Source of the DNA: Candidatus Omnitrophota bacterium
GTDB lineage: Bacteria; Omnitrophota; Gorgyraeia; Gygaellales; Profunditerraquicolaceae
NCBI GenBank assembly: GCA_028710685.1
Contig: JAQTTQ010000001.1
Span: 1,648-65,647, forward strand
Length of the DNA: 64,000 bases
Direction: 5' to 3'
In this document: piece by piece, positions 13,031 through 53,764 of the stretch
Layout: every line of letters starts with the position of its first letter
How positions within the stretch are numbered: the first letter of the stretch is position 1
Notes under the pieces: model-generated
Database searches by the model: none
Told to the model about the DNA's origin: nothing
The model's input: only the letters and a program-made list of their open reading frames with translations
Position numbers and translations under genes: made by a program

Positions 13031-13756
13031 ATGCCTAGAAAAAACAAGGATAATTACGAGATTTACGTAAAACAGATTGAAGTCTTGTCTAAGGTAGCAA
13101 ACCTGATTACTTCAGGAATGTACCTGGAGGAGCTTCTGCGCCTGATTGTCAATGTTACTGCTGAGATAATGAATTCTAAGATATCCTCTTTAATGCTCTT
13201 AGACCATGAAAAGAAAGAGTTGGTGGTGCGCGCTACTCAGTCAATCTCCGAATCTTATAATAAGAAGCCTAATATAAAGATGGGAACTGGCATAGCCGGC
13301 GAGGTTGCTTTAAATAATAAGGCTATAGTTGTGCCGGACCTTAAAAAAGACCCCCGCTATCTTAATCAGGATATCGCAAGGAAAGAAAAACTTTGTTCCC
13401 TGGCGAGCATTCCTATGGCGGTAAATGGGAAGGTTATCGGCGTGCTTAATTGTTATACTTCTAAGAAGCATGAATTTACCAAGACAGAGTTGAATCTTCT
13501 CAACGCCTTGGCAAATCAGGCAGCTATAGCTATTGAGAATGCAGAGCTAAACCTTCGAGCGCGCTCTGCGGAAGAGGCCCTTACTACGCGCAAAGTCGTA
13601 GAGAGGGCGAGGGATATTTTATCCCAGGAAGCTAACATTTTGCCTTCGGAAGCATACCGTTTAATTCAAAAACAGAGTATGGATTCCCGTAAGTCAATGC
13701 GGGAGGTAGCCGAGGCCATAATCTTGGCCAAGGATATAAAGAGTAAGAAGTATTGA
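13031..13756 (+). CDS. GAF-ANTAR protein (putative RNA-binding antiterminator with a ligand-sensing GAF domain)
   Basis: The N-terminal GAF segment includes GTGIAGEVALNNKAIVVPD. The C-terminal ANTAR segment TRKVVERARDILSQEANILPSEAYRLIQKQSMDSRKSMREVAEAII closely resembles the AmiR/NasR-type ANTAR domain. Confidence 0.75.
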   Translation: MPRKNKDNYEIYVKQIEVLSKVANLITSGMYLEELLRLIVNVTAEIMNSKISSLMLLDHEKKELVVRATQSISESYNKKPNIKMGTGIAGEVALNNKAIVVPDLKKDPRYLNQDIARKEKLCSLASIPMAVNGKVIGVLNCYTSKKHEFTKTELNLLNALANQAAIAIENAELNLRARSAEEALTTRKVVERARDILSQEANILPSEAYRLIQKQSMDSRKSMREVAEAIILAKDIKSKKY

Positions 13757-13825
13757 CAAATATAGATTTTATGTTAGACTAGTATTAGATTACGCAATGA
13801 TGCAGTAATACGCAATGACATAGAA

Positions 13826-13869
13826 GTCTTCTGGGCTTGTTAAAAAAGCCAGAAGGCTTTTTCTTTTTA
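13826..13869 (+). terminator. intrinsic terminator after the GAF-ANTAR gene
   Basis: Stem CTTCTGGGCTT/AAGCCAGAAGG with loop GTTAAAA, followed by CTTTTTCTTTTT. Confidence 0.7.
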
Positions 13870-13870
13870 C

Positions 13871-13924
13871 GGACACTGGAGTCCTCAATCCGGAATTTAT
13901 TCCGGTTGGGGGCTCTTATTTTTT
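13871..13924 (+). promoter_or_regulatory. leader of the sigma-factor gene: hexaloop hairpin overlapping a terminator-like structure
   Basis: GGAC-ACUGGA-GUCC (13871-13884) is a hexaloop hairpin. A GAGTCC (13879-13884) ... GGGCTC stem encloses the palindrome CCGGAATTTATTCCGG (13890-13905) and is followed by TTATTTTTT (13916-13924). The hexaloop hairpin and the terminator 5' arm share nucleotides. Confidence 0.45.
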
Positions 13925-13933
13925 GAGGGTAAG

Positions 13934-14455
13934 ATGGAGTATGCCCGGTTATTAAAAAAACTTTTACCTAAGATAAAAGGGATAGCCTTTAAGCTAAACA
14001 GGTATTATGGGCCTTTTGCTTATGATGATTTATGCCAGGAAGCGATTATCCATCTTTGGGTTAATTTTAAAGCAGGCCGTTTAGCTGAGAAGACGCAGAG
14101 TTATATATTGCAGGGGTGCTACTTTCACCTGAGGAATTATATCCGTAAATTTAGCGAAAAAAATACCCTCTTAAGCCTGGATTCATTAATTAATGATGAT
14201 AACGAGGTAACCCTTGAAGGCCTGCTCGTTTTAGATGATGAGAGAGATTTGCGCGATGTTATGAATGATAATTTCCTGGTGGAGGCTATTGAAAATAACG
14301 GTTTTACTATAAGGGAAAAGCAGATACTTAAGTTTTATAAAAAGGGACTCACTACTAGAGAAATAGGGGGGAGGCTCAGCCTTTCTCATGTTAGAATAAT
14401 TAAGATTATGCAGAATATAAGAATTAAGTGCCGTAAATACCAGGATATTTTTTAG
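13934..14455 (+). CDS. sigma-70 family RNA polymerase sigma factor (ECF-like, region 2 plus region 4)
   Basis: The region 2-like segment DLCQEAIIHLWVNF...YILQGCYFHLRNYIRK and the region 4 HTH LTTREIGGRLSLSHVRIIKIMQNIRIKCRK. The RBS is GAGGGTAAG. Length is 173 aa. Confidence 0.75.
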   Translation: MEYARLLKKLLPKIKGIAFKLNRYYGPFAYDDLCQEAIIHLWVNFKAGRLAEKTQSYILQGCYFHLRNYIRKFSEKNTLLSLDSLINDDNEVTLEGLLVLDDERDLRDVMNDNFLVEAIENNGFTIREKQILKFYKKGLTTREIGGRLSLSHVRIIKIMQNIRIKCRKYQDIF

Positions 14456-14552
14456 TTACCAGGCTTAAGCCGTTTTTACTTGTATATATAAGACACATTG
14501 AAGTGTAATCTAATACAAAGGCGTTCCTTGATAAAGGGGCGCTATTTTTTTT
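14456..14552 (+). promoter_or_regulatory. amt leader (element A): small terminator hairpin, hexaloop hairpin and a strong intrinsic terminator before the RBS
   Basis: GGCTTAAGCC plus Ts at 14462-14476. Hairpin ACAC-AUUGAA-GUGU at 14493-14506. A 9-bp terminator stem GCGTTCCTT/AAGGGGCGC with a GATA loop, then TATTTTTTTT, at 14521-14552. The amt RBS AAGGAGGGG follows directly. The block is about 70% identical to 18495-18587. Confidence 0.55.
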
Positions 14553-14569
14553 ACATTAAGGAGGGGTTT

Positions 14570-15874
14570 ATGGATATGAAGGTTGTTATTGATACAATTT
14601 GGGTCCTTATGACTGCAAAACTGGTATTCTTTATGAATCTGGGTTTTGCTATGGTTGAGTCAGGGTTTGCCCGTTCAAAGAACTGCGTAAATATCCTTTC
14701 TAAGAACTTCGTGGTTTTCGCCGTTTCATCTTTTGGTTTTCTGCTTTTAGGCTGGGGGCTTATGTTCGGAGACGGAAATGCTTTTATGGGGCTAAAGGGC
14801 CTCTTTTTTGCAAGCGGAATAGATAATTCTCCGGCAACCGCTGAGGCGTATAAGGGAGTTTATTCCGCTCTTTCCTGGACCGGAGTACCAATGTGGGCAA
14901 AATTCTTTTTTCAGCTGGTATTCTGCGGCACGGCAGCTACTATTGTATCCGGGGCTGTGGCAGAGCGGATTAAATATAATTCTTTTATAATTTTTTCTTT
15001 TCTTATGGCCATGTTTATTTATCCAATCGTCGGGCATTGGATATGGGGAGGTGGTTGGTTGCATAGTAAGGGGATGCTTGATTTCGCAGGTTCAACAGTA
15101 GTGCATTCAGTTGGAGGGTGGGCAGCTCTGGCAGGCATTTTGGTTTTAGGGCCGAGATTCGGTAAATATGCAAACGGCAGGTTAAATCCGATCCCCGGAC
15201 ATAACCTTTCGCTAGCCACATTAGGTACCTTTGTTCTCTGGTTTGGTTGGTTTGGTTTTAATCCCGGGTCAACAATGTCTGCCGATCCTATTGCAATAAG
15301 CCATGTCGCCATAACTACCAATATGGCGGCAGCTATGGCTATTATTAGCGCTACCTTGCTTTCCTGGATATTATTAGGAAAGCCTGATCTAGGGATGACT
15401 TTAAATGGCTGCTTGGCCGGGTTAGTGGCCATTACCGCCGCCTGTGCTTTTGTAAGTGTTGTAAGTGCTATTATAATCGGTTTAATTGCAGGCGCACTTG
15501 TGGTTTTATCGGTTATATTCTTTGATAAGATTAGAATCGATGATCCGGTAGGCGCCCTTTCAGTTCATCTTGTAAACGGAATCTTTGGTACTCTTTGTGT
15601 GGGACTTTTTGCGCAGGATAAGATTGCCGGTATAGATACGGGAAACGGGTTATTTTACGGGGGAGGGACTAAACTGTTAGCCTCTCAGCTAAGCGGTGTT
15701 TTAGGGGTTGCGCTATTTACTTTTTTTGTTTCACTTTTTTTCTGGGGCGTGCTTAAATATACCATGGGTATAAGGGTATCCCTTAAGGAAGAGGTAGAGG
15801 GTTTGGATATCGGAGAACACGGTAATTCTGCCTATCCTGAATTTTTTGGCAGGAAGCCGGCATATACAGTTTAA
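14570..15874 (+). CDS. amt: ammonium transporter (Amt family)
   Basis: About 11 TM helices and Amt/MEP-family sequence throughout (for example FGFNPGS, GHWIWGGGWL). The ATG at 14570 has an AAGGAGGGG RBS. The ORF-track start at 14498 is upstream of the leader terminator. Confidence 0.9.
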   Translation: MDMKVVIDTIWVLMTAKLVFFMNLGFAMVESGFARSKNCVNILSKNFVVFAVSSFGFLLLGWGLMFGDGNAFMGLKGLFFASGIDNSPATAEAYKGVYSALSWTGVPMWAKFFFQLVFCGTAATIVSGAVAERIKYNSFIIFSFLMAMFIYPIVGHWIWGGGWLHSKGMLDFAGSTVVHSVGGWAALAGILVLGPRFGKYANGRLNPIPGHNLSLATLGTFVLWFGWFGFNPGSTMSADPIAISHVAITTNMAAAMAIISATLLSWILLGKPDLGMTLNGCLAGLVAITAACAFVSVVSAIIIGLIAGALVVLSVIFFDKIRIDDPVGALSVHLVNGIFGTLCVGLFAQDKIAGIDTGNGLFYGGGTKLLASQLSGVLGVALFTFFVSLFFWGVLKYTMGIRVSLKEEVEGLDIGEHGNSAYPEFFGRKPAYTV

Positions 15875-15887
15875 GGAGGGTGAATAA

Positions 15888-16226
15888 ATGAAAAAAATAG
15901 AAGCCATTATAAGGCCAGAGAGTATTGATGCGGTGCGAAGCGCTTTAAGTGCGGCAGGGGTAACTGGCCTCATGATTTCGGATATTGAAGGGCATGGTAA
16001 ACAAAAAGGGGTTATCCAGCAGTGGAGGGGGGAGAAGTATAGGGTGGAGCTTCTTGCAAAAATAAAAATTGAGACCGTGGTTAAGGATGATGATGTGGAG
16101 CGTATAGCCGGCGTTATTATTGAAAGCGCCAGGACAGGCGAGATAGGAGACGGTAAGATATTTATATACCCGATTACGGAGGCGATAAGGATACGTACGG
16201 GAGAAAAGGGGGATTCGGTCATTTAG
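15888..16226 (+). CDS. glnK: nitrogen regulatory protein P-II (amt-linked)
   Basis: MKKIEAIIRPESIDAVRSALSAAGVTGLMISDIEGHGKQKG, 112 aa, immediately downstream of amt. Confidence 0.9.
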   Translation: MKKIEAIIRPESIDAVRSALSAAGVTGLMISDIEGHGKQKGVIQQWRGEKYRVELLAKIKIETVVKDDDVERIAGVIIESARTGEIGDGKIFIYPITEAIRIRTGEKGDSVI

Positions 16227-16295
16227 AATTTAGCGCTTTAAAAGTCTGTTTATTTCTTATAAGCTTGTGGTAGAATAGTGCAAAGGGAGGAAGAT

Positions 16296-18491
16296 ATGAG
16301 CATAAGGCAAAAAGCTTTATTTAAAGTTAAGAGTGTTGCGTTAGATAAGATAAATACCCCTAAAAAGGTTTCCGGGTATTTCGGTGAGAATACCTTCAGT
16401 TTAGATACCATGCGCAAACATATCTCCAAGGATACTTTTGAGGCCTTTAAGAGATGGATGTCGCAAGGCAGTACTATTACTTTAGGCCAGGCAAATGAAA
16501 TTGCCGAGGCGATGAAAGAGTGGGCTATGGCAAAGGGTGCTACTTATTACACTCATTGGTTTCAGCCTATGACCGGGCTAACCGCAGAAAAGCACGATAG
16601 CTTTATTTCTATGGTATCGCCTGGGAAGGTGATTGAGAAATTCTCAGGGAATAAGCTAATTCAGGGAGAGCCTGATGCCTCAAGCTTTCCTTCTGGCGGA
16701 ATTCGCGCTACTTTTGAGGCCCGCGGTTATACTGCTTGGGACCCTTCAAGCCCGGCCTTTATTATTGAAAGCGCCCTTGGGAAGACTCTTTGTATTCCCA
16801 GCATATTTATTTCTTATCACGGAGAGGCCTTAGATAAGAAGCTGCCGCTTTTACGTTCCGATGAAGCATTAAATAAAGCAGCAGTAGGCCTGTTAAAGAT
16901 CTTTGGGCGCAAGGATGTAAGGAAGGTATTCTCAACCTGCGGTCCGGAACAGGAGTATTTCTTAATTGATAAGCATTTTTATAATTTGCGGCAGGATTTA
17001 TTAATGGCAGGGAGGACCTTGATCGGGGCCCCTTCTCCGAAAGGGCAGCAGCTTGAAGACCAGTATTTTGGCACGATTAAGGAGCGGGTAGTTAATTTTA
17101 TGTTTGAATTGGCCCAGGAGGCTTATAAATTAGGAATTCCTATAATGACCCGGCATAATGAAGTTGCTCCTCATCAGTATGAGTTCGCTCCTATTTTTGA
17201 AGAGTCTAATATAGCTGCGGACCATAACCAGCTTTTAATGGAATTAATGAAGAAGGTTGCTTTAAGGCATGATATGGTATGCCTTTTGCATGAAAAGCCT
17301 TTTGCCGGCATAAACGGAAGCGGCAAGCACCTTAACTGGTCTTTGTCCGATGATAATGGCAATAACCTCCTTAACCCGGGAGAGACGCCTGAAGACAACC
17401 TGCAGTTTTTAACTATCTTAGCTGCGGTTTTGCGTGCGGTGTATCTTCATGCCGATCTTTTGCGCGCCTCCATTGCTATGGCAGGCAATGAACATCGTTT
17501 GGGGGCAAATGAAGCTCCTCCGGCTATTATCAGCGTATTCTTAGGAGAGCAGCTTACTGAAGTATTGGATATGCTGGAAAATGGGGTTAAGGCGAAGTTC
17601 TCCAAGCGCGATATCATTGACCTGGGGATTGCGCGCCTTCCTAAATTCAATAAGGATAGTACGGATAGAAACCGCACCTCTCCCTTTGCCTTTACCGGAG
17701 CAAAATTTGAGTTTCGCGCAGTAGGTTCATCCCAGAACATTTCAACCCCGATTACTATTATAAACACTATTATTGCCGAAAGCCTTGATTTTGTTGCTAG
17801 CGAGCTTAAAAGAGCTGTCAATTCGGGAAAGGATTTTAACTCTGCGGTACTTAAGGTCGTTAGTTCAGTCATAAAGGAGACAAAGAAGATCCGTTTTGAA
17901 GGTAATAATTATTCTAAGGAATGGCTGAATGAGGCGAAGAAGAGAGGGCTTCCTAATATAGCCTCTACCTATGAATCGCTTAAGGCGTTAAAGAAGGAGG
18001 GTAATGTCGGTCTTTTTGAGAAGTATAAGGTTTTTTCCAAGGAGGAGCTTATTGCCCGTTATCACATATGGATCCATATGTATAATTTGACCCTTGAAAT
18101 TGAGGCAAATACTTTAGGCGAAATGGTTAATGCCTCGGTTGTCCCCGCAGGGTATGAATACGAGAAGCTTCTTGCCAGGACCCTTGATGAGATAGTAAGG
18201 CTTAAGAAATCAGCCGGGTTAAAGATCGATGCTAACGCATTGAAAGATAAGAAGGAGCATCTGAGTGAAATAGTGAACAAGATTTATTATGTAAGGCATA
18301 ATACAGCCACAATGGGTTGCTTGCTTGAGAAGGCGTGCGCCCTGAGCAGTGAAAAAAGGGCTGAGGTTTATTTTAAGAACTTAAAGCCTTTAATGGAACA
18401 TATCAGAAAGCACGTAGACCAGCTGGAGTCTGTCGTCTCTGATGATGCCTGGGATCTGCCCAAGTACCGCGAGATGCTTTTTATTAAATAA
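16296..18491 (+). CDS. glnN: glutamine synthetase type III
   Basis: About 730 aa with the GSIII-specific N-terminal region and a catalytic core including NGSGKHLNWSL. The ATG at 16296 has a GGGAGG RBS. Confidence 0.85.
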   Translation: MSIRQKALFKVKSVALDKINTPKKVSGYFGENTFSLDTMRKHISKDTFEAFKRWMSQGSTITLGQANEIAEAMKEWAMAKGATYYTHWFQPMTGLTAEKHDSFISMVSPGKVIEKFSGNKLIQGEPDASSFPSGGIRATFEARGYTAWDPSSPAFIIESALGKTLCIPSIFISYHGEALDKKLPLLRSDEALNKAAVGLLKIFGRKDVRKVFSTCGPEQEYFLIDKHFYNLRQDLLMAGRTLIGAPSPKGQQLEDQYFGTIKERVVNFMFELAQEAYKLGIPIMTRHNEVAPHQYEFAPIFEESNIAADHNQLLMELMKKVALRHDMVCLLHEKPFAGINGSGKHLNWSLSDDNGNNLLNPGETPEDNLQFLTILAAVLRAVYLHADLLRASIAMAGNEHRLGANEAPPAIISVFLGEQLTEVLDMLENGVKAKFSKRDIIDLGIARLPKFNKDSTDRNRTSPFAFTGAKFEFRAVGSSQNISTPITIINTIIAESLDFVASELKRAVNSGKDFNSAVLKVVSSVIKETKKIRFEGNNYSKEWLNEAKKRGLPNIASTYESLKALKKEGNVGLFEKYKVFSKEELIARYHIWIHMYNLTLEIEANTLGEMVNASVVPAGYEYEKLLARTLDEIVRLKKSAGLKIDANALKDKKEHLSEIVNKIYYVRHNTATMGCLLEKACALSSEKRAEVYFKNLKPLMEHIRKHVDQLESVVSDDAWDLPKYREMLFIK

Positions 18492-18494: not shown

Positions 18495-18618
18495 TGTTAC
18501 CAAGCCTAGGGCTTGTTTACTTGTATATGTAGAAGGCACATAGTAGTGTAATAGTACCAGAAAGAACGAAGGCGTTCATGATAGCTGATAAATAAGCTAA
18601 AGTGAACGTCTTTTTTTT
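18495..18618 (+). promoter_or_regulatory. fis-gltBD leader (element B): paralogous copy of the amt leader with hexaloop hairpin and terminator
   Basis: AAGCCTAGGGCTT hairpin plus Ts at 18503-18518. Hairpin (G)CAC-AUAGUA-GUG(U) at 18536-18549. Alternative hairpin GAACG-AAGG-CGTTC at 18564-18577. A 9-bp terminator stem GGCGTTCAT/GTGAACGTC followed by T8, at 18571-18618. Confidence 0.55.
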
Positions 18619-18648: not shown

Positions 18649-19026
18649 ATGATAACTATCCTAATATCTGAAGATGAAATAAGGGCCAAAGAGGCCCTCG
18701 CTAGGATGTTCGCCCAGGAGGGATATGAACTTTCAGAATCCTGCCTTACGGGCAATGTCATAAGGGTAGTGAAGAAGGGCTGCATCCGCGACCTTGCCTT
18801 TATAGGCGATAGTGCAATTGAGATACAGGATTCATTTCTTAGCGGCCGGGGGGCATTGTATAAATCGGTAGTTGAAGAAATAGAAAAGCCTTTAATCGAA
18901 CATACCCTTGAGAGTACCCAGGGCAATCAGATAAAGGCGGCAAAGGTTTTAGGGCTAAACCGTAATACCTTACGTACCAAGATAAGAAAGCTAGGAATTA
19001 ATGTTAGAAAATGGAAAATTATATGA
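18649..19026 (+). CDS. Fis-family DNA-binding protein
   Basis: The C-terminal segment LYKSVVEEIEKPLIEHTLESTQGNQIKAAKVLGLNRNTLRTKIRKLGI matches the Fis/NtrC C-terminal HTH. The N-terminus resembles a vestigial receiver start (ITILISEDEIRAKEALARM). Confidence 0.65.
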   Translation: MITILISEDEIRAKEALARMFAQEGYELSESCLTGNVIRVVKKGCIRDLAFIGDSAIEIQDSFLSGRGALYKSVVEEIEKPLIEHTLESTQGNQIKAAKVLGLNRNTLRTKIRKLGINVRKWKII

Positions 19027-22000
19027 AAAACGATAATGGTTTTCCTCTTGCCCAGGGATTATATGACCCTCGCCTCGAGCATGATTCCTGCGGCGTAGGT
19101 TTTGTTTGCGATATCCTTGGCAGGAAATCTAACGGTATCCTCAGGCAGGGAATCAGCGTATTAAACAGGCTTGCTCATCGCGGGGCGGTAGGGGCAGATC
19201 CTAAGACCGGGGATGGTGCAGGTATTTTAATCCAGATCCCTCATGAGTTTTTCGCTAAGGTTGCCCAAGATAAAGGTATTGCCTTGCCTGATCCGGGGTT
19301 TTATGCAAGCGGATTGGTATTCTTGCCTCAGAATAAGGAAGAGCGTCAATTCTGCAAAGATTATTTTGAAGAAGCCATAAATGAGCACGGGCAGTCTTTG
19401 CTTGGTTGGCGGGTTGTGCCTACCGATAGTTCTGATATCGGAGAGGGCGCAAAATCCACCCAGCCGGTTTTTGAACAGGTTTTTATCGCCAGGGGTAAGG
19501 AGATTAAAAGCCAATTAGATTTTGAAAGAAGGCTGTATATAATCCGCAGGAGAATAGAAAATATTGTCCGCTCCTCCAAATTAAAACAAAAGAGCTCATT
19601 TTATATCACCAATATCTCAAGCCGGACTTTTTCTTATAAGGGCCTGCTTATGCCGGGGCAGCTGGATAGTTTCTTTATTGATTTGAAGGACAATAGCTTA
19701 AAAAGTGCATTGTGCCTTGTGCATTCCAGGTATTCGACAAACACCTTTCCTACCTGGGATTTAGCGCAGCCATTTAGGTTTCTGGCGCATAACGGAGAAA
19801 TCAATACCATCCGCGGTAATATTAACGGGGTTAGCGCTAGGGAGCGCCTTTTAGCAAGCGAATTTTTCGGCCTGGATATAGAGAAGTTAAAGCCGATAAT
19901 TGTGGAGGGCGGCAGCGATTCCGCAGCGATAGATAATTTTTTTGAATTGCTCGTTTTATCCGGAAGGCCCATTGATCATGTAATGATGATGCTTATCCCC
20001 TCTGCCTGGGAACACGATAAACTCATGAAGAAAGAGTTAAGGGACTTTTATAAATACCACGCCTGTTTTATGGAGCCTTGGGATGGCCCGGCAGCGGTTG
20101 CTTTTACCGATGGGGATAATATAGCGGCAGCCTTGGATAGAAACGGCTTGAGGCCGGCACGTTATATTATTACAAACGATAATCTATGCGTAATGGCCTC
20201 TGAGGTCGGGGTCCTGGATATCGCGCCTAAGGATATCAAGGTTTCCGGCAGGCTTGAACCGGGGAAGATTTTCTTTATAGATACAAAAGCCGGGCGTGTA
20301 ATTAACGACGCAAAGATTAAAGAGGAAATATCTCAGCATAATCCTTATGGTTATTGGCTTTCAAAGAACCTGGTGGATTTAGATAAGTTATCCGGCTCAG
20401 GTTTGCCGCTGAAACACAAGTCCGAGGATTTAATCGCAGCCTTAAAAAGCTTTGGTTATTCGCGCGAAGACCTGAAATTAATTATCCGGCCTATGGCCGA
20501 GGAAGGCAAGGAGCCTGTGGGGTCTATGGGGAATGATACCCCTCATGCCTTCTTGTCCGATAAGCCTCAACTTTTGTATAATTATTTTAAACAGCTTTTT
20601 GCGCAGGTCACTAACCCGGCAATTGATTCCATAAGGGAAAAGCTGGTTATGAGCCTGGAAAGCTTTATCGGACCGGAGAAGAATTTGTTGGAAGAAACCC
20701 CAAAACACAGCCATAAATTAAGGGTTAATAACCCTATTCTTTCGGATGAGGAATTATCCAGGATCAGGGATATAGGCGTAAATAACTTTAAGACCAAGAC
20801 AATATATACTTTCTTTGATGCCGGGAATAAGGAAGATGGTTTCAGGATGGCCCTGGAAAGGATATGTTTTGAAGCAGAATACGCTATAGAGCAGGGGTAT
20901 TCCTTTATCATATTAAGCGACAGGGGGGCGGATAGGGATGGCATTGCCCTGCCGGCACTTTTAGCCACAAGTGCGATACATCACTATTTAGTCAAGAAAA
21001 CTATACGTTCGCAGGTTGCTTTAATAGTGGAGAGTGCGGAGCCCAGGGAGGTGCATCATTTTGCGCTTCTTTTTGGTTATGGCGCTGATTGTATCAATCC
21101 CTATCTTGCCTATAGGGCAGTTGAATATCTTATCGAACAAAAAGAATTAAAAACAGATATCAAGACTGCGCTTAAAAATTATAATAAGGCGGTAACCGAT
21201 GGGATACTAAAAATACTATCCAAAATGGGTATTTCTACCCTTAGAAGTTACCGCGGAGCACAAATTTTTGAGGCCTTAGGCTTAAGCCAGGATTTAGTTG
21301 ACCGGTATTTTACAGGTACTGTTTCAAGGATCGGCGGAGTCAATTTAAGCGGGATTGCCCTGGAAACTATTCTACGCCACAGGCAGGCTTATTCTGCGCG
21401 CAACCCCCAGAACGTTTGTTTACCAAGCGGAGGGGTATACCAATGGAAGGCAGACGGAGAATTTCATCTGTGGAATCCTATGAGTATTGCAGCCTTGCAG
21501 GCTGCTGCGAGGGAAAATAACCCGGTTAAATACGCTGAGTTTGCAAAACTGATTAATGATCAATCGGATAACCCGACTACCTTAAGAAGTTTATTCAGAT
21601 TTAAGGCGGCAGAAAAAGTTCCGCTTGATGAAGTGGAGCCGGTAAGCGCTATAATGAAACGTTTTGTAACCGGCGCAATGAGTTTTGGCTCCATAAGTGC
21701 TCCGGCCCATGAAACTATAGCTATCGCCATGAACAGGATCGGCGGAAAGTCTAATACCGGAGAGGGAGGAGAGGACCCCAATAGGTTTATAGCCTTGCCT
21801 AACGGTGACTCGCGAAGGTCGGCTATTAAGCAGGTGGCATCAGGAAGATTCGGGGTAACTATAAATTACCTTATTAATGCCGATGAGATACAGATTAAGA
21901 TTGCCCAGGGCGCTAAACCGGGAGAGGGAGGGCAGTTGCCCGGGCATAAGGTAAGCGGGGTAATCGCCAGGATACGTTATACTACTGCCGGGGTAACCTT

Positions 22001-23561
22001 AATATCCCCTCCTCCTCATCATGACATCTATTCGATTGAAGACTTAGCGCAGCTTATTTTTGACTTAAAGAATGCAAATCCTAAGGCGCGCATCAGCGTA
22101 AAGCTTGTCTCGGAAATGGGTGTGGGTACTGTGGCTGCTGGTGTGGCCAAGGGGCATGCAGATATGATTTTAATCTCCGCAGGAGACGGTGGCACAGGGG
22201 CCTCGCCTTTAAGTTCTATTAAATATGCGGGCCTTCCCTGGGAGCTGGGTTTATCCGAGACGCATCAGACATTGCTTCTGAATAATCTGCGCTCAAGGGT
22301 TCGTATACAGGCTGATGGCCAGATGCGTACCGGGCGGGATGTGGTTATCGCGACTTTATTGGGAGCGGAGGAATTCGGTTTTTGTTCTGCCGTATTGGTA
22401 GTAGTCGGGTGTGTAATGCTTAGGCATTGCCACTTGAATAATTGTTCCCTGGGGGTGGCTACGCAGGATGATATTCTGCAAAAAAGATTTAAGGGCAGGC
22501 CGGAGTATATAGTTAATTATTTCAATTTTGTTGCCCAGGAGATAAGAGAGATTATGAGCAGCCTTGGGATAAGGAATATGGATGAAATGGTCGGACGCTC
22601 CGATCTTCTTGAAGTAGACAAAGATAGAGTCCCCTTAAAGGCTAAAAATTTGGATTATTCCCGTATACTCTACCGTCCTTTGCTAGCTGACGGGACAGCA
22701 AGGCATTTTCAGCCTAAAAAGAATAACAGCTTAGGGCCGGTGTTAGATAACAAGCTGATTAAAGAATGTTCTGTTTCTATTAGAGAGAACAAGCCGATAG
22801 TAGTAACTAGCGGGATAAATAATGCAGATCGTTCTGTAGGCGCGATGTTAAGCGGGGAAGTATGCCGCGTCTGCGGGGATGGGGTACTTCTTGAGGATAC
22901 TCTAAGATGCCGATTTCGCGGGATAGCCGGACAGAGTTTCGGGGCTTTCTTGGCTAAGGGGATAACATTTGAGCTCGAGGGGATGAGTAACGATTATGTA
23001 GGTAAGAGTATATCCGGAGGAAAAATAATAATCTATCCTGATCGCAGCTCTTCTTTTAATCCCCATGAGAATATTATTATTGGTAATACCAGTTTCTACG
23101 GGGCAATATCAGGGGAGGCTTATATAAGCGGTTTGGCAGGGGAGCGGTTCTGCATCAGGAATTCCGGCTTATATGCGGTTGTGGAAGGAGTGGGAGATCA
23201 TGGCTGTGAATATATGACCGGGGGAAGGGTTATAATACTGGGAAGAACCGGAAGAAACTTTGCCGCAGGTATGTCCGGGGGCATAGCCTATGTTTACGAT
23301 CAGGATGGCAGCTTTAAAGATAGATGCAATATGGATATGGTGGCGCTGGATAGGATAAAGGGCGATGATTTAGATACCATATATCATCTTTTGCATAATC
23401 ATTTAAAATATGCCAAAAGCAAGAAGGCAAAGTCGATACTTGAGAATATCCACGATGAGCTTAAGTATTTTATCAAGGTAATACCTATAGAATACAAAAG
23501 AATACTTGAGGGTATTAAGATTGAGCAAAAGCTCGATTTAATGGAGAGATCTGATGGGTGA
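19011..23561 (+). CDS. gltB: glutamate synthase large subunit
   Basis: 1516 aa with the Ntn amidotransferase start (...CGVGF), FMN/Fe-S central domains and the C-terminal GXXDGG repeat domain. An alternative ATG at 19023 overlaps the fis stop. Confidence 0.9.
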   Translation: MENYMKNDNGFPLAQGLYDPRLEHDSCGVGFVCDILGRKSNGILRQGISVLNRLAHRGAVGADPKTGDGAGILIQIPHEFFAKVAQDKGIALPDPGFYASGLVFLPQNKEERQFCKDYFEEAINEHGQSLLGWRVVPTDSSDIGEGAKSTQPVFEQVFIARGKEIKSQLDFERRLYIIRRRIENIVRSSKLKQKSSFYITNISSRTFSYKGLLMPGQLDSFFIDLKDNSLKSALCLVHSRYSTNTFPTWDLAQPFRFLAHNGEINTIRGNINGVSARERLLASEFFGLDIEKLKPIIVEGGSDSAAIDNFFELLVLSGRPIDHVMMMLIPSAWEHDKLMKKELRDFYKYHACFMEPWDGPAAVAFTDGDNIAAALDRNGLRPARYIITNDNLCVMASEVGVLDIAPKDIKVSGRLEPGKIFFIDTKAGRVINDAKIKEEISQHNPYGYWLSKNLVDLDKLSGSGLPLKHKSEDLIAALKSFGYSREDLKLIIRPMAEEGKEPVGSMGNDTPHAFLSDKPQLLYNYFKQLFAQVTNPAIDSIREKLVMSLESFIGPEKNLLEETPKHSHKLRVNNPILSDEELSRIRDIGVNNFKTKTIYTFFDAGNKEDGFRMALERICFEAEYAIEQGYSFIILSDRGADRDGIALPALLATSAIHHYLVKKTIRSQVALIVESAEPREVHHFALLFGYGADCINPYLAYRAVEYLIEQKELKTDIKTALKNYNKAVTDGILKILSKMGISTLRSYRGAQIFEALGLSQDLVDRYFTGTVSRIGGVNLSGIALETILRHRQAYSARNPQNVCLPSGGVYQWKADGEFHLWNPMSIAALQAAARENNPVKYAEFAKLINDQSDNPTTLRSLFRFKAAEKVPLDEVEPVSAIMKRFVTGAMSFGSISAPAHETIAIAMNRIGGKSNTGEGGEDPNRFIALPNGDSRRSAIKQVASGRFGVTINYLINADEIQIKIAQGAKPGEGGQLPGHKVSGVIARIRYTTAGVTLISPPPHHDIYSIEDLAQLIFDLKNANPKARISVKLVSEMGVGTVAAGVAKGHADMILISAGDGGTGASPLSSIKYAGLPWELGLSETHQTLLLNNLRSRVRIQADGQMRTGRDVVIATLLGAEEFGFCSAVLVVVGCVMLRHCHLNNCSLGVATQDDILQKRFKGRPEYIVNYFNFVAQEIREIMSSLGIRNMDEMVGRSDLLEVDKDRVPLKAKNLDYSRILYRPLLADGTARHFQPKKNNSLGPVLDNKLIKECSVSIRENKPIVVTSGINNADRSVGAMLSGEVCRVCGDGVLLEDTLRCRFRGIAGQSFGAFLAKGITFELEGMSNDYVGKSISGGKIIIYPDRSSSFNPHENIIIGNTSFYGAISGEAYISGLAGERFCIRNSGLYAVVEGVGDHGCEYMTGGRVIILGRTGRNFAAGMSGGIAYVYDQDGSFKDRCNMDMVALDRIKGDDLDTIYHLLHNHLKYAKSKKAKSILENIHDELKYFIKVIPIEYKRILEGIKIEQKLDLMERSDG

Positions 23562-24999
23562 TTTAAGGGGGTTCTTAAAATTAGCCAGGCAGGATAATTC
23601 TTATAGGGATGTCTGCCAGAGGGTAGAGGATTACAGGGATGTGGTTAAGCCCCGTAAGGATATCAAGGCAAAAGAGCAGGCTTCGCGCTGCATGGATTGC
23701 GGGACTCCCTTTTGCCATTTTAAATGTCCGCTGGGTAATTACATACCCGAGTGGAATGATTTTATGTTTCGGGGGAATTGGGAAGAGGCAGTGAAGTTAC
23801 TGGAGGCAGCCAACAGCCTTGCGGAGATTACCGGGCGGGTTTGCCCGGCTTTATGCGAATACGCCTGTGTTTTAGGCCTTAACGATGATCCGGTAACTAT
23901 CCGTGATAACGAGTTATCTGTAGTGGAATACGGTTTTAATAATGGTTTGATTAAGCCGGTCAAAATCAGCCAAAGAACCGGGAAAAAGGTTGCGGTGGTT
24001 GGTTCCGGACCGGCAGGACTATCATGCGCATCCCTTCTTAATAAGGCAGGGCATACGGTCACTGTTTTTGAGCGCGATAGTGAACTTGGGGGGATTCTCC
24101 GTTTTGGCATTCCGGATTTTAAACTTGAGAAAGGTATTTTGGACAGGCGTATCGGCTTATGGAATAAAGAGGGGGTTATTTTCAAGGTTAATACAGATGT
24201 GGGCAGCGATTATCCGGTGGCTAAATTAATTGAAGGTTTTGACGCGATTTGCCTGGCAGGGGGATCGCGAATCCCCCGGGATTTAAATATTGAAGGCCGC
24301 AATTTAAAAGGAATATATTTTGCGATGGATTACCTTAAGCAGTCTAACCTTCGCGTATCCGGCAAGAAAATCCCGGCAGAAGAGTTAATCGATGCCAGGG
24401 GAAAGAGTGTTGTGGTTATAGGCGGGGGAGATACCGGATCGGATTGCGTAGGTATTGCGCATCGCCAGAAAGCCGGCTGTGTTGTGCAGATTGAAGTTTT
24501 ACCCCGGCCTCCCGAATGCCGCACAGAAGACCAGCCTTGGCCTAATTATCCGCTTCTTTTAAGAAACTCTAGCAGCCATGAAGAAGGCGGAGAGCGCTAT
24601 TGGTCGGTATTGACAAAGAAATTTGTAGGCGAAAAAGGCAGGGTAAATAAATTATCTTGCGTTAAAGTTGAGTTGATCCCTCAACCGGGTAATCCCTGCC
24701 TAATAAGTAAAGAAATACCCGGGAGTGAATTCTATATCAAGGCGGATTTAGTAATAATTGCGGCAGGGTTTCTGCATCCGCAGCATACGGGGTTGCTTAA
24801 AGAATTAAATATAGGCTTTGATCAGAAGGGTAATGTTTTTACTCAAGACAATTATGCTACCTCAGTAGATAAGATATTTTGTGCAGGCGATATGCGCCGC
24901 GGGCAATCTTTGGTTGTCTGGGCTATTTCAGAAGGTAGGCGCTGTGCCTATGCGATAGATAAGTTTCTTATGGGAGAGAGCAGTTTGGCTCAAATTTAA
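23554..24999 (+). CDS. gltD: glutamate synthase small subunit (NADPH)
   Basis: N-terminal Cys clusters (CMDCGTPFCHFKCP), the FAD/NAD Rossmann segment VAVVGSGPAGLSCAS, and an 8-nt overlap with gltB. Confidence 0.9.
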   Translation: MGDLRGFLKLARQDNSYRDVCQRVEDYRDVVKPRKDIKAKEQASRCMDCGTPFCHFKCPLGNYIPEWNDFMFRGNWEEAVKLLEAANSLAEITGRVCPALCEYACVLGLNDDPVTIRDNELSVVEYGFNNGLIKPVKISQRTGKKVAVVGSGPAGLSCASLLNKAGHTVTVFERDSELGGILRFGIPDFKLEKGILDRRIGLWNKEGVIFKVNTDVGSDYPVAKLIEGFDAICLAGGSRIPRDLNIEGRNLKGIYFAMDYLKQSNLRVSGKKIPAEELIDARGKSVVVIGGGDTGSDCVGIAHRQKAGCVVQIEVLPRPPECRTEDQPWPNYPLLLRNSSSHEEGGERYWSVLTKKFVGEKGRVNKLSCVKVELIPQPGNPCLISKEIPGSEFYIKADLVIIAAGFLHPQHTGLLKELNIGFDQKGNVFTQDNYATSVDKIFCAGDMRRGQSLVVWAISEGRRCAYAIDKFLMGESSLAQI

Positions 25000-25014: not shown

Positions 25015-27594
25015 ATGATTAGCACCGGTATAAAAGGGTTAGATAGCGTGATTACGGGGTTAAGGCTAGGAGATAATGTAGTTTGGCAGATCGATCATAT
25101 CGATGACTATCTAGATTTGGTAAGGCCATTTGTCAGGCAGTCATTAAAAGAAGGAAGAAAAGTGGTTTATATCAGGTTTGCCGCGCACCAAGAGCTCCTT
25201 AAGCCATCCGCTAAGGTAAGGCGTTATGATTTAGACGCTAGTGCCGGATTTGAATCTTTTACTGCCAGGGTGAATAATATTATTACCGCGGAAGGGGAAG
25301 GGGCTTATTATGTGTTTGACTGTTTGTCTGAGCTGCTTTTGGCTTGGGCCACCGATCTTATGATGGGTGATTTCTTTATGCTGACTTGCCCGTATCTCTA
25401 CGAGCTTAAGACAGTAACCTACTTTTCTATTTTACGTAACAACCATTCCTTTAAGTCTATAGCGCGCATACGCGAGACGACACAATTATTGCTTGATGTG
25501 TACCGTTGCCAAGAGAGTTTTTATATCCATCCCTTAAAGGTATGGAACCGCTATTCTCCTACTATGTTTTTACCGCATTTAAGAAAGGGGGATGAGTGTA
25601 TTCCGATTACGGATAGCGTAAACGCGGCAAGGCTTTTTTCCTATATCAGGGAAAAGGGGGCAGAGAATGCCAAACGCAACCTTGATTATTGGGACCGTTT
25701 ATTTCTGGAGGCCGGCGATCTGGCAGGGAAAAACCTTCCTAAGGAGAAGGTTAAGGAAACCTTGGCAAAGTTATGCAGTATAATGATCTCTAAAAATAAG
25801 AAAATATTGGATTTGGCGATGCGAACTTTCTCGCTGGAGGAACTTATAGAAATAAAGTCACGCTTAATCGGGACCGGTTTTATCGGGGGTAAAACCGTGG
25901 GTATGCTCATCGCCAGGAAGATACTTTCGCAGAAGCTTTTAAACTGGAAAGAATTATCTGAGCCCCATGACTCTTTTTATATCGGTTCGGATATATTTTA
26001 TTCTTATATAGTCCATAACCGCTGGTGGAAACTGCATATGCAGCAGAAGACTGAAGAAGGTTATTTTAATGCGGCAAGGTTATTGAAAGAAAGGATGCTT
26101 TACGGGATATTCCCCGAAGAGATTATGGAGCATTTTCAGCAGATCATTGAATATTTCGGGTCATCGCCTATTATAATACGCTCCAGCTCACTGCTGGAGG
26201 ATGATTTTGGCAATGCCTTTGCCGGTAAATATGAGAGTATATTTCTGGCTAACCAAGGCAGTCCCGAGCAGAGGTATATACAATTTGCGGAGGCAGTTAG
26301 GAAAATTTATGCCAGCACAATGAATGAGGATGCTTTAGTTTATAGGAAGCAGAGGGGGTTGGATAAGCTGGATGAGCAGATGGCCCTTTTGGTGCAGCGT
26401 GTTTCAGGCGCTCATCATAAAGATTTTTTCTTTCCGGATTTAGCCGGGGTAGGCGTTTCATATAATACATATGTTTGGAATAACGAAATCAATCCTAAGA
26501 CAGGCATGCTGAGGGTTGTTTTCGGGTTGGGTACCAGGGCGGTTAATCGGGTGGAAGGGGATTATCCTAGGATGGTAGCTTTGTCCGATCCCCTGCGCAG
26601 GCCTTATGCGCAAAATGAGGATTTAAGAAAATATTCCCAGCATGACGTAGATGTTATAGATACAAAAGAAAACTCCCTGGCTACAATATCCTTTAATGAG
26701 CTGGCCTTAAAGAATATCTATAAAAATGTCGAAGCCTTTGCGGTTAAGGATTATGATTCGATGGATTTCATGAGTAAAAGAGGCCAGGATGGGCAATATT
26801 GGATTCTGACACTCGATAATATATTTAATGATAATAAATTGCCGGATTTTTTTAGGAAAATACTCGGGGAATTAGAGTTAAACTATGATTATCCGGTTGA
26901 AATAGAATTTACGGTTAATTTCACGGGGGATAACAAGTTTAAGATCAATCTCCTGCAGTGCCGTCCGTTACAAACATACGGCCTGGAGCGTAAGGTTAAG
27001 ATACCTAAGGCAATAAGTAAGGAGGATACCCTATTTGATTCCAGGGGTTATTTTTTAGGAGGGAATATTAACCAGAAGATAAGCTGGATTATCTATATTG
27101 ACCCTGAAAGGTACAGTAAGCTTATCCTTTCCGATAAATATGAGGTAGCCCGGATAGTAGGCAAATTAAATATATCTATTAAAAGCAGGGATGAGCTGCC
27201 TACCCTTTTAATGGGACCGGGCAGATGGGGTACAACTACGCCTTCACTGGGAGTACCGGTTAAGTTCGCCGAGATAAATAATGTAGCGGCCCTTGCTGAG
27301 ATTGCTTTTTCATCCGGAAATTTAATGCCGGAGTTATCATTCGGTACCCATTTTTTTCAGGATTTGGTAGAAACAAATATATTTTACGCAGCCCTATTCC
27401 CCGGCAGGAAGGAAGTCATTTTCAATAAAAAATGGTTTGATAAGAACAGGAATCTGTTTACTGATCTTATCCCCGAGTCGGCAAAATACGAAGATGTAAT
27501 CGGGGTATATGATGTAAGCGAAAAAAACTTTAAGATTATTTCGGAGGTAGTTTCGCAGAGAGTTGTTTGTTTTGCTCAAGGGTTTACTAATTGA
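25015..27594 (+). CDS. PEP/pyruvate-binding (PPDK_N ATP-grasp-like) domain protein with an N-terminal degenerate KaiC/RecA-like domain
   Basis: The N-terminus GIKGLDSVITGLRLGDNVVWQ resembles the KaiC/RadA start but has no Walker A motif. A central segment GTGFIGGKTVGMLIARKIL resembles the PEP-synthase/PPDK nucleotide-binding domain. No His swivel motif was seen. The RBS is AAAGAGGAG. Confidence 0.5.
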   Translation: MISTGIKGLDSVITGLRLGDNVVWQIDHIDDYLDLVRPFVRQSLKEGRKVVYIRFAAHQELLKPSAKVRRYDLDASAGFESFTARVNNIITAEGEGAYYVFDCLSELLLAWATDLMMGDFFMLTCPYLYELKTVTYFSILRNNHSFKSIARIRETTQLLLDVYRCQESFYIHPLKVWNRYSPTMFLPHLRKGDECIPITDSVNAARLFSYIREKGAENAKRNLDYWDRLFLEAGDLAGKNLPKEKVKETLAKLCSIMISKNKKILDLAMRTFSLEELIEIKSRLIGTGFIGGKTVGMLIARKILSQKLLNWKELSEPHDSFYIGSDIFYSYIVHNRWWKLHMQQKTEEGYFNAARLLKERMLYGIFPEEIMEHFQQIIEYFGSSPIIIRSSSLLEDDFGNAFAGKYESIFLANQGSPEQRYIQFAEAVRKIYASTMNEDALVYRKQRGLDKLDEQMALLVQRVSGAHHKDFFFPDLAGVGVSYNTYVWNNEINPKTGMLRVVFGLGTRAVNRVEGDYPRMVALSDPLRRPYAQNEDLRKYSQHDVDVIDTKENSLATISFNELALKNIYKNVEAFAVKDYDSMDFMSKRGQDGQYWILTLDNIFNDNKLPDFFRKILGELELNYDYPVEIEFTVNFTGDNKFKINLLQCRPLQTYGLERKVKIPKAISKEDTLFDSRGYFLGGNINQKISWIIYIDPERYSKLILSDKYEVARIVGKLNISIKSRDELPTLLMGPGRWGTTTPSLGVPVKFAEINNVAALAEIAFSSGNLMPELSFGTHFFQDLVETNIFYAALFPGRKEVIFNKKWFDKNRNLFTDLIPESAKYEDVIGVYDVSEKNFKIISEVVSQRVVCFAQGFTN

Positions 27595-27650
27595 CAGTTT
27601 CTTAAACTATGCTATACTTACAAATAGTTCAAGGGAGAACTCAAGAGTTT

Positions 27651-27701
27651 AAACAATGGCGTTTAAGGGCCGTTCCATCGGCATTAAACGCCTTTTTGTT
27701 T
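27651..27701 (+). promoter_or_regulatory. pyrG leader: hexaloop hairpin overlapping an intrinsic terminator (candidate attenuator)
   Basis: AAAC-AAUGGC-GUUU (27651-27664). A 9-bp terminator stem GGCGTTTAA (27658-27666) / TTAAACGCC (27685-27693) with a structured loop, followed by TTTTTGTTT. The two structures are mutually exclusive. Confidence 0.5.
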
Positions 27702-27705: not shown

Positions 27706-29330
<1,625 letters not shown>

Positions 29331-29331
<1 letters not shown>

Positions 29332-32055: not shown

Positions 32056-32057
32056 TT

Positions 32058-34627: not shown

Positions 34628-34738
34628 TTGACAAAAATTGTAATAGTGTTATTATTTAATCTCAATATTAGTTTTGAGGACAATGGCGTCCATTCTTTAC
34701 CGTTATTTATATAATTACGGAAGGAGTGGGCGTTTTTT
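34628..34738 (+). promoter_or_regulatory. nfnA leader: promoter, hexaloop hairpin and a terminator-like structure
   Basis: TTGACA (34628-34633), 16-nt spacer, TATTAT (34650-34655). Hairpin GGAC-AAUGGC-GUCC (34678-34691). An 8-bp stem GTCCATTC (34688-34695) / GAGTGGGC (34724-34731) with an inner hairpin, then G plus TTTTTT (34733-34738). The hairpin and terminator overlap. A perfect inverted repeat GCCTAAGAATTAGGC (34752-34766) abuts the RBS. Confidence 0.5.
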
Positions 34739-34774
34739 ATTCTCAAGGGATGCCTAAGAATTAGGCAGAAGGTT

Positions 34775-35599: not shown

Positions 35600-35607
35600 G
35601 GTAAACT

Positions 35608-37038: not shown

Positions 37039-37062
37039 TTTAAATTTAAGGAGGTGGGGTAG

Positions 37063-53595: not shown

Positions 53596-53668
53596 GGGCC
53601 TCTAGCTCATCCGGTAGAGCAGCGGCTTTTTAAGCCGCGTGTGCCGAGTTCGAGTCTCGGGAGGCTCA
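53596..53668 (+). tRNA. tRNA-Lys (anticodon TTT)
   Basis: Cloverleaf folded by hand. Acceptor GGGCCTC/GAGGCTC, D stem GCTC/GAGC, anticodon stem GCGGC/GCCGC with loop TTTTTAA, T stem CCGAG/CTCGG. Length is 73 nt. Confidence 0.85.
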
Positions 53669-53749
53669 TATATTTGTTACCGAGGTGATGATCCCCTTGC
53701 AAGTCTTAGCGGGGGGACTCGCTCCTTTTAAGTAAGCGCAGGGAGCTCG

Positions 53750-53764
53750 GTCTCGGGAGGCTCA
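53750..53764 (+). repeat. direct repeat of the 3' end of tRNA-Lys (tRNA fragment)
   Basis: TCTCGGGAGGCTCA at 53750-53764 matches 53654-53668 (the T-arm 3' half plus acceptor 3' strand). No matching 5' half is present. Confidence 0.5.

Follow-up and report, generated by a model that had tools for sequence, protein, structure and literature searches.

ANTAR-type transcription attenuators predicted in nitrogen and glutamine operons of an Omnitrophota bacterium, with a neighboring GAF-ANTAR protein as their probable regulator

Why should genes of ammonium and glutamine assimilation be preceded, one operon after another, by intrinsic terminators that end just before the ribosome-binding site? This question is raised by a 64-kb stretch of a Candidatus Omnitrophota genome, from an uncultivated organism (the whole of the stretch is hereafter referred to as the window), in which five transcription units begin in this manner, namely, those of a sigma factor resembling the extracytoplasmic function (ECF) class, amt-glnK-glnN, fis-gltBD, pyrG-carAB-purF, and nfnAB-gdhA. 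Directly upstream of the first leader lies a gene for a protein combining a GAF sensor domain with an ANTAR domain (Table 1). Known ANTAR elements consist of two similar stem-loops, P1 and P2, with a terminal C:G pair and a hexaloop whose first base is A and whose fourth is G (A1/G4), of which P2 alternates with an intrinsic terminator (PMC3369931, PMC7496416). From the sequence of the window, the original prediction had proposed that the five leaders share such a hexaloop hairpin and constitute a candidate ANTAR regulon. The comparative analysis presented here makes it very probable that the leaders are ANTAR-type transcription attenuators served, most likely, by the adjacent GAF-ANTAR protein.

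Six attenuators were recognized in the window, on five transcription units, with two in tandem in the sigma leader. Dual stem-loops are present in sigma attenuator 1 and in the amt, gltB, and pyrG leaders, so that all the sequence-level features that define an ANTAR target are found in four of the six attenuators, in agreement with the proposed geometry. In sigma attenuator 2 and the nfnA leader, P2 stands alone; a canonical P1 was sought in these two leaders and none was found, the hairpin upstream of the nfnA P2 (34661-34678) having an 8-nt loop and hence not qualifying. The hairpins originally listed at 13871-13884, 14493-14506, 18536-18549, 27651-27664, and 34678-34691 proved exact in their coordinates, the fourth being the core, AAAC-AAUGGC-GUUU, of a longer pyrG P2. 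The inventory of one hairpin per leader was incomplete, however, in that sigma attenuator 1 (13790-13868) and pyrG P1 (27626-27641) had been missed. The proposed physical overlap of hairpin and terminator stands for the sigma, pyrG, and nfnA leaders; the hairpins listed for amt and gltB are P1, and it is P2, at 14515-14524 and 18564-18577, respectively, that overlaps the terminator there. Among the window hexaloops, A1 is found in 9 of 11 and G4 in 10 of 11.

All six terminators consist of a stem followed by a run of 5-8 U, and in every case the 5' arm of the terminator starts within the P2 loop or at the P2 3' arm: in sigma attenuator 1, it is the 3' arm of P2 itself, and in sigma attenuator 2 and the amt leader it begins at loop position 4. 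Because the second half of the P2 loop and the P2 3' arm form the 5' arm of the terminator, the two folds are mutually exclusive. In these leaders, folding of P1 and P2 contributes 0 to -4 kcal/mol, compared with -14 to -25 kcal/mol for the terminators; the terminator being far more stable, termination is expected to be the default fold without protein. The ribosome-binding site follows the terminator at a distance of 5-35 nt and is not part of the dual hairpin. A terminator before the ribosome-binding site had been predicted for all five leaders, correctly, with ends at 13924, 14552, 18618, and 34738 in agreement with ours, whereas the pyrG terminator, placed at 27701, ends at 27697.

The generic and the more specific versions of the hairpin differ in how far they depart from chance. 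Generic A1/G4 hexaloop hairpins with a stem of at least 3 bp occur 336 times on the + strand of the window, compared with ~283 in shuffled sequences, which is not significant alone, and the generic version of the proposed shared mark thus does not rise above chance. The C:G-closed version does: 7 of the 33 such hairpins on the + strand fall inside the 718 nt of the five leaders, against ~0.4 expected. In addition, four leaders share the 10-mer ACRAWGGCGT, which covers the P2 hairpin and the first bases of the terminator; its four matches in the window are all in these leaders, against 0.17 expected for a pattern derived from these very sites.

To place the leaders in a wider context, we assembled 80 loci around GAF-ANTAR homologues, 1.16 Mb in total. 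About half of these loci belong to Omnitrophota, with GAF-ANTAR proteins 68-94% identical to that of the window, and the others (46-60% identity) come from metagenome-assembled genomes (MAGs) labelled Syntrophales/Syntrophaceae, Thermodesulfobacteriota, Nitrospiraceae, Elusimicrobia, Aerophobetes, and others. In this set, the gene strand carries 34 copies of ACRAWGGCGT and the opposite strand 5, and a terminator with a U-run comes after almost all of them. Two covariance models (CMs) were built. The first, R1, was based on a seed (A2) of 20 hand-aligned dual hairpins with fixed 6-nt flanks, which replaced a MAFFT seed alignment (A1) that was dropped because three rows were out of register. The second, R2, was trained on R1 matches in relatives only, with zero sequence from the window and with no pyrG leader. 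R1 yielded 54 matches at E<=1, of which 53 are on the gene strand, and R2 yielded 59 matches in the related loci, all of them on the gene strand. When applied to the window, R2 re-found the amt, pyrG, and gltB leaders (Table 1) as well as sigma attenuator 1 (E = 0.025, compared with 5e-6 for R1, of which this attenuator is a seed member), and nothing further above noise in the 64 kb, nfnA coming next with E = 1.2. Sigma attenuator 2 scored no better than E = 9.4 with R1 because P1 is absent.

The alignment of the 54 R1 matches (A3) shows conserved pairing. As many as 92.6% of its cells are paired, 6 of the 8 pairs change on both sides, and its pairing score was reached by 0 of 500 shuffles, with control alignments slid out of register pairing in 27-56% of cells. 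The outer pairs covary around inner AC...GU pairs that never change. The closing pair is C:G in 48 of 49 and 52 of 53 rows for the two hairpins (20 of 20 for each in the seed), loop position 4 is G in 50 of 50 and 53 of 54, and loop position 1 is A in 38 of 51 and 46 of 54, the remainder being mostly G. Consistent with these results, the orthologous sigma leaders retain both attenuators, with compensatory changes in P1 (UAC/GUA versus GC/GC) and an invariant G4 in all loops: P1 of attenuator 1 reads AUUAC-AGCGUU/AAUGAA-GUAGU and the attenuator 2 hairpin GGAC-UAAGGC/UAAGAC-GUCC in orthologues, and the TTGACA element of the promoter is kept at the same place. Similarly, nfnA orthologues in two relatives (L011 and L020) are preceded by GGAC-AAAGGC-GUC(U/C) and a terminator. 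As the original prediction had anticipated, orthologous leaders keep hairpins and terminators; across the 80 loci, the two CMs found 54-59 elements, with covarying helices.

The terminator was left out of both CMs and was judged by a separate, fold-based check, which is independent because the models contain no terminator. An initial terminator scan restricted to loops <=8 nt had recovered only some of the leader terminators (25 in total against 20.9 in shuffles) and was replaced by this check. P2 is followed by an overlapping terminator with a U-run in 59 of 60 elements, the six of the window among them, and the first base of the terminator 5' arm falls at P2 loop positions 0-7, in most cases 3-6. 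This placement bears on a possible role in translation. Mycobacterial ANTAR RNAs are reported to act by translational repression (bioRxiv 10.1101/660928), and ANTAR binding could, by analogy with such actinobacterial targets, control sequestration of the ribosome-binding site here too; with P2 overlapping a U-run terminator almost without exception and the ribosome-binding site 5-35 nt beyond it, we consider this scarcely credible.

The same data speak to whether these are ordinary constitutive terminators, operon boundaries, or insulators, accompanied by small hairpins that are fortuitous or structural, with no regulated antitermination. Several of the terminators do follow upstream genes, and the generic 3-bp hairpin is as common as in shuffles, but the terminators come after promoters and immediately precede the ribosome-binding sites of essential assimilation genes, which would be silent without read-through. 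Furthermore, both the sequence and the pairing of the hairpins are kept across phyla with compensatory changes and a 53:1 strand bias, and the loop and closing-pair rules match those of ANTAR ligands selected in vitro, which makes this explanation very improbable.

A further possibility is that the same terminators are governed by a metabolite riboswitch, for example, for glutamine, or by an RNA-binding protein unrelated to ANTAR. The regulated genes do center on glutamine and ammonium, and glutamine riboswitches exist in other phyla. Against this, a search of the whole window with Rfam returned nothing but tRNAs at the gathering score, and at E<=5 the region 13700-14600 gave only sub-threshold noise (best E = 0.11, all far below gathering). 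The conserved part consists of two mini-hairpins, 12-20 nt in size, which lack internal loops or junctions that could make up a ligand pocket, and its features coincide point by point with the ANTAR consensus. We therefore attach very little weight to the riboswitch alternative and consider the leaders further as ANTAR-type attenuators. Their architecture, conservation, covariation, overlap with terminators, association with nitrogen genes, and linkage to GAF-ANTAR proteins across phyla are established computationally.

Table 1. Coordinates of the regulator, leader elements, and operons in the window
Feature	Position	Strand	Remarks
GAF-ANTAR one-component regulator gene	13031..13756	+	241 aa; Pfam GAF_2 84.5 bits, ANTAR 59.2 bits
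Sigma leader, sigma-70-type promoter	13753..13780	+	TTGACA-16-TAGACT, TG-extended
Sigma attenuator 1, P1	13790..13808	+	Hexaloop AAUGAU at 13796-13801; CM match 13790-13831
Sigma attenuator 1, P2	13817..13828	+	GAC-AUAGAA-GUC; G4 invariant in 11 orthologues
Sigma terminator 1	13826..13868	+	Stem 13826-13857, -15 kcal/mol; U-run 13858-13868
Sigma attenuator 2, lone P2-type hairpin	13871..13884	+	GGAC-ACUGGA-GUCC; no canonical P1
Sigma terminator 2	13878..13924	+	Stem 13878-13916, -25 kcal/mol, then U-run
Divergent ECF-like sigma-70 family factor	13934..14455	+	173 aa; NCBIfam TIGR02937
amt leader, candidate alternative-sigma promoter box	14455..14482	+	GTTACC-N15-TTACTTG
amt leader, P1	14493..14506	+	ACAC-AUUGAA-GUGU; CM match 14491-14528, E = 3e-5 with R2
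amt leader, P2	14515..14524	+	AC-AAAGGC-GU; 2 canonical pairs here, 3-7 in relatives
amt terminator	14520..14552	+	Stem 14520-14543, -14 kcal/mol, U8
amt - glnK (P-II) - glnN (glutamine synthetase type III) operon	14570..18491	+	amt start ATG 14570
fis-gltBD leader, second copy of the box	18496..18523	+	GTTACC-N15-TTACTTG
gltB leader, P1	18536..18549	+	GCAC-AUAGUA-GUGU; CM match 18534-18579, E = 2e-4 with R2
gltB leader, P2	18564..18577	+	GAAC-GAAGGC-GUUC; loop position 1 = G
gltB terminator	18571..18618	+	Stem 18571-18610, -19 kcal/mol, U8
Small Fis-type helix-turn-helix (HTH) gene - gltB - gltD	18649..24999	+	
pyrG leader, sigma-70-type promoter	27591..27618	+	TTGACA-16-TATACT; 11/12 matches, TG-extended
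pyrG leader, P1	27626..27641	+	AGUUC-AAGGGA-GAACU
pyrG leader, P2	27648..27667	+	UUUAAAC-AAUGGC-GUUUAAG; CM match 27625-27666, E = 1.6e-4 with R2
pyrG terminator	27658..27697	+	Stem 27658-27692, -19 kcal/mol, U5
pyrG - carA - carB (half-size, N-terminal) - purF-like amidotransferase operon	27721..33434	+	
nfnA leader, sigma-70-type promoter	34628..34655	+	TTGACA-16-TATTAT; read from sequence
nfnA leader, P2	34678..34691	+	GGAC-AAUGGC-GUCC; CM E = 1.2-4.2
nfnA terminator	34687..34738	+	Stem 34687-34732, -22 kcal/mol, U6
nfnA-like - nfnB/gltD-like - gdhA operon	34775..38400	+	

The genes behind the elements fit a common theme. In relatives, CM matches precede the sigma homologue, amt, Gcw_chp-amt, glnK, glnN, glnA, fis-gltB, gdhA, and nfnA, and further matches precede genes for a glutamine-dependent NAD synthetase (nadE), a glutamate-synthase-like protein, a permease-P-II fusion, and a second GAF-ANTAR protein. 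Profile searches uphold the original gene calls in the window, that is, sigma, amt-glnK-glnN, gltBD, pyrG-carAB-purF, and nfnAB-gdhA. The gene set behind the elements is a coherent nitrogen and glutamine regulon; in the window, six attenuators in front of five operons span ammonium uptake, the glutamine synthetase-glutamate synthase (GS-GOGAT) pathway, glutamate dehydrogenase (GDH) together with the supply of NADPH for it, and the principal glutamine amidotransferases.

The candidate regulator is a bona fide GAF-ANTAR protein, as originally proposed: residues 180-231 match the ANTAR domain (PF03861) with 59.2 bits, against a cut-off of 27.3, and the signature residues A193, A208, Y209, S216, and A229 are invariant among 40 homologues. 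A protein encoded on MAG contig JBAZGD010000018 is 94% identical to that of the window. In an AlphaFold2 (AF2) model (predicted local distance difference test, pLDDT, 84), a GAF fold is followed by a long helix, 151-201, and by ANTAR helices 205-218 and 223-239, that is, by a predicted coiled-coil and a three-helix ANTAR output. The description of this domain as very AmiR-like is not supported: the nearest solved ANTAR domains by sequence are those of Rv1626 (1s8n), an EutV-like regulator (6wsh), and NasR (4akk), and AmiR is not among the PDB sequence matches at E<=0.01. Membership in the AmiR subfamily was rejected since the N-terminal domain is GAF and not AmiR_N, and with GAF plus ANTAR as its architecture and no REC domain in the 13031-13756 product, the protein falls outside the GnfR type as well.

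The GAF domain best resembles those of NifA/Nlh and PtsP (EI-Ntr), with E values of 1e-14 for NCBIfam nifA and 1.5e-14 for PtsP; its PDB sequence matches are 4g3k, 3trc, and 3ci6 (19-29% identity), and a Foldseek search with the domain model points to 3ci6/3trc (TMt 0.83-0.84). GAF domains of PtsP and NifA are sensors of nitrogen signals, namely, 2-oxoglutarate and glutamine, which makes these two metabolites reasonable candidate ligands. PtsP, HD-GYP, cAMP-binding, and NifA-like GAF domains all score alike, and cAMP-/cGMP-binding GAF domains are comparable, so that these comparisons do not assign a ligand.

Is this protein the one that reads the leaders? The window holds a single ANTAR gene, a tblastn search of the 64 kb for a second one having returned none, and the leader begins ~35 nt past the GAF-ANTAR stop codon not only in the window but in at least 15 related loci. 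Moreover, the motif accompanies homologues of this protein into other phyla. Nevertheless, the attenuators could be read by another ANTAR protein encoded elsewhere, either a second GAF-ANTAR paralogue or a GnfR-like REC-ANTAR protein, with the adjacent gene serving a subset of leaders, such as the GAC-AYAGAA-GUCUUC sigma type, or being a mere neighbor. Three relatives (L010, L027, and L042) carry a 55%-identical GAF-ANTAR paralogue behind two attenuators, P2 falls into two sequence classes in the alignments, AYAGAA-GUCUUC and AAWGGC-GUU, in Geobacter the reader of the AAnGGC loop is a REC-ANTAR protein, and the visible portion of the genome is 64 kb. On balance, we consider it unlikely that another ANTAR protein takes the place of the adjacent one. 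The paralogue (~55% identity; L042 7370-8320, L027 14686-15600, L010 17558-18470) is itself preceded by two tandem ANTAR attenuators, and in L042 it comes immediately after the first GAF-ANTAR gene; an attenuated second GAF-ANTAR gene suggests auto- or cascade regulation between ANTAR proteins.

Taking the GAF-ANTAR protein as the regulator, the circuit could operate as follows. By default, the nascent leader would fold into the terminator, and transcription would stop before the ribosome-binding site. In the alternative fold, one or two weak mini-hairpins, P1 and P2, would present C:G-closed hexaloops whose first base is A (or G) and whose fourth is G; a dimeric ANTAR protein would clamp these hexaloops, the terminator would be blocked, and RNA polymerase would read through. 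The GAF domain would couple RNA binding to a small-molecule nitrogen signal, with 2-oxoglutarate and glutamine as the obvious candidates. Its predicted targets are the ECF-like sigma gene, with two tandem attenuators, amt-glnK-glnN, fis-gltBD, pyrG-carAB-purF, and nfnAB-gdhA. In this scheme, we infer the binding of RNA by the protein, the acting ANTAR protein, the ligand, and the direction of the response.

This mechanism has well-known precedents. Like the EutV/eut, NasR/nasF, and AmiR/amiE systems, the leaders combine tandem mini stem-loops, a C:G apex, A1/G4 hexaloops, overlap of P2 with the terminator, and termination as the default. The differences concern the sensor, which is REC in EutV, NIT in NasR, and pseudo-REC with AmiC in AmiR but GAF here, and the RNA, in which position 1 is sometimes G or U and P2 stands without P1 in two of the six attenuators and in many of those in relatives (glnN, gdhA, and sigma attenuator 2). 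The association with nitrogen genes is not without precedent either. Most ANTAR targets predicted by Ramesh et al. (2012) lie upstream of genes for P-II, ammonium transporters, and glutamate/glutamine synthase (PMC3369931), and nitrogen regulons of this kind were predicted in Desulfotomaculum acetoxidans, with 13 attenuators in six transcription units, D. reducens, and Pelobacter carbinolicus (PMC3369931). The Omnitrophota regulon shares the nitrogen theme and the multi-operon layout of these three but belongs to a different phylum, adds pyrG-carAB-purF, nfnAB-gdhA, and the ECF-like sigma factor to the targets, and comes with an identified regulator of the GAF-ANTAR architecture, which Ramesh et al. 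listed as uncharacterised (PMC3369931).

A further precedent is Geobacter sulfurreducens, in which GnfR antiterminates the nifH, glnK, and amtB leaders via CAGGCAANGGCGCC (Ueki & Lovley 2010, PMC2995071). The GnfR site CAGGCAANGGCGCC, situated just upstream of the terminators and overlapping them, contains the same C:G-closed AAnGGC hexaloop as P2 in the window (AAAGGC/AAUGGC), and, as predicted for the window, Geobacter has a cascade design in which a dedicated promoter class, that of RpoN, is combined with antitermination. Unlike GnfR, a phosphorylated REC-ANTAR protein under GnfL/GnfM and sigma-54, the regulator here is a one-component GAF-ANTAR protein; the candidate upstream tier consists of the ECF-like sigma factor and a GTTACC-N15-TTACTTGTA box in place of RpoN, and gdhA is co-regulated rather than counter-regulated. 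Since both ANTAR nitrogen regulons and the AAnGGC loop are in the literature, the design has been described before: the Omnitrophota leaders are a well-supported new example of the known ANTAR mechanism, in a new phylum and with a new sensor domain, and not a new principle.

The value of the example lies in annotation and as a model system, the mechanism and the link to nitrogen genes having already been published. For a candidate phylum without cultured members, it is a first concrete model of nitrogen control that can be tested, and it provides a defined set of candidate RNA ligands for the GAF-ANTAR class, which has been catalogued and for which our searches of the literature for GAF-ANTAR, and for ANTAR together with Omnitrophota, returned no characterised example ('antar' mostly matched 'Antarctic'). 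Because the pair of protein and motif also occurs in MAGs labelled Syntrophales, Thermodesulfobacteriota, Nitrospiraceae, and Elusimicrobia, the result generalises.

The sigma factor adds a second layer to this picture. It is a divergent member of its family, with 49.1 bits against NCBIfam TIGR02937 (sigma70-ECF; cut-off 42.9) over residues 3-169, sub-threshold Pfam matches to Sigma70_r2 (18.6 bits), Sigma70_r4 (15.0 bits), and GerE, and WhiG as the best PDB match (E = 0.03). The leaders fall into two promoter types: those of sigma, pyrG, and nfnA, along with gdhA in relatives, have TTGACA-16/17-TAnnnT, and the corresponding place is taken by GTTACC-N15-TTACTTGTA in those of amt and fis-gltB and, in relatives, of glnN and glnK. 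The bipartite box GTTACCA ... TTTACTTGTA occurs in 36 copies, 2 in the window and 34 in loci L001-L061, all with an exact 15-nt spacer, on the gene strand, and before amt/Gcw_chp, glnN, glnK, or fis-gltB leaders. By eye, it fits neither a sigma-54 (TGGCAC-N5-TTGC) nor a sigma-70 (TTGACA-N17-TATAAT) promoter. GTTACC-N15-TTACTTGTA was found in 20 of the 20 loci with a homologue of the sigma factor and in none of the 60 loci without one, a co-occurrence that suggests a feed-forward cascade. The most economical reading of these sequence patterns is that the box may be the promoter of the ANTAR-gated sigma factor. If the sigma factor indeed recognises GTTACC-N15-TTACTTGTA before the amt and gltB leaders, the circuit would be an AND gate, in which the ANTAR protein would be needed to make the sigma factor and again to read through the sigma-dependent operons.

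P2-only attenuators, for their part, are a conserved subclass, being found in the glnN and gdhA leaders of relatives, where the promoter is immediately followed by the hairpin and gdhA has its own leader of the same type. In four relatives, the glnN leaders carry GAAC-AGNGGC-GUUC (L002 ~14165-14240, L005 ~18239-18310, L007 ~14236-14310, and L014 ~14129-14200), and with only a few bases between the box promoter and this hairpin, P1 could not fit in. The broader proposition that the GAF-ANTAR protein and the ECF-like sigma factor form the master nitrogen circuit of this lineage, with a feed-forward AND gate and with single-hexaloop attenuators that work, is tentative, and we hold it to be somewhat less probable than its negation. 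If true, the lineage would possess a "nitrogen sigma factor" with no relation to sigma-54, and the requirement for two hairpins established for EutV would be relaxed by the single-hexaloop attenuators, namely, sigma attenuator 2 and nfnA in the window and those of glnN and gdhA in relatives.

Several considerations weigh against the interpretation favored here, and they concern its different parts. The pair counts lean towards structure because the seed was hand-picked for hairpins and the CM itself guided the 54-match alignment. Two of the six attenuators, sigma attenuator 2 and nfnA, have noise-level scores and no canonical P1, whereas the EutV paradigm needs both hairpins, and the amt leader of this genome forms a P2 with no more than two canonical pairs. 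The second GAF-ANTAR paralogue in relatives means that the assignment of regulator to leader is not unique, and the synteny of sigma, box, and amt confounds the co-occurrence of sigma factor and box. GS-GOGAT and Amt would share one signal with GDH and with glutamine-consuming enzymes, unlike the classical pattern of nitrogen limitation. Finally, termination, read-through, and binding in this uncultivated organism are predictions.

Other genes in and around the regulon show features of their own. The Fis-type protein (18649-19026) has 125 aa, of which only the C-terminal Fis/NtrC-type HTH_8 is recognisable; its gene overlaps the gltB start by 16 nt and is kept before gltB in relatives (52-94% identity), with homologues behind the same type of leader in L001, L002, L006, L007, and L014. 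It may be a DNA-binding regulator inside the regulon. The gene at 25015-27594 encodes an 859-aa protein with a PPDK_N domain (phosphoenolpyruvate-utilising, ATP-binding) and a very weak KaiC-like N-terminal match; following gltD without a gap, it is probably part of the gltBD transcription unit. The 548-aa product of carB (30409-32055) matches positions 1-543 of the 1058-position model of the large subunit and is directly followed by purF, and no second half was seen adjoining it. Between the nfnA terminator and the ribosome-binding site, there is an extra small hairpin, GCCUAAGAAUUAGGC, at 34750-34768. Downstream of the gdhA terminator, a 645-aa open reading frame (38498-40435) matches no Pfam family at E<=1e-5. 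In relatives, a gene of the Gcw_chp family (putative porin, ~267 aa) is inserted between leader and amt (L007 11668-12471, with equivalents in L002, L003, L005, L006, L009, L014, and L042); it is absent from the window, where the leader directly precedes amt. Three tRNA genes, the sole Rfam matches at gathering level in the window, are clustered at 53596-53970.

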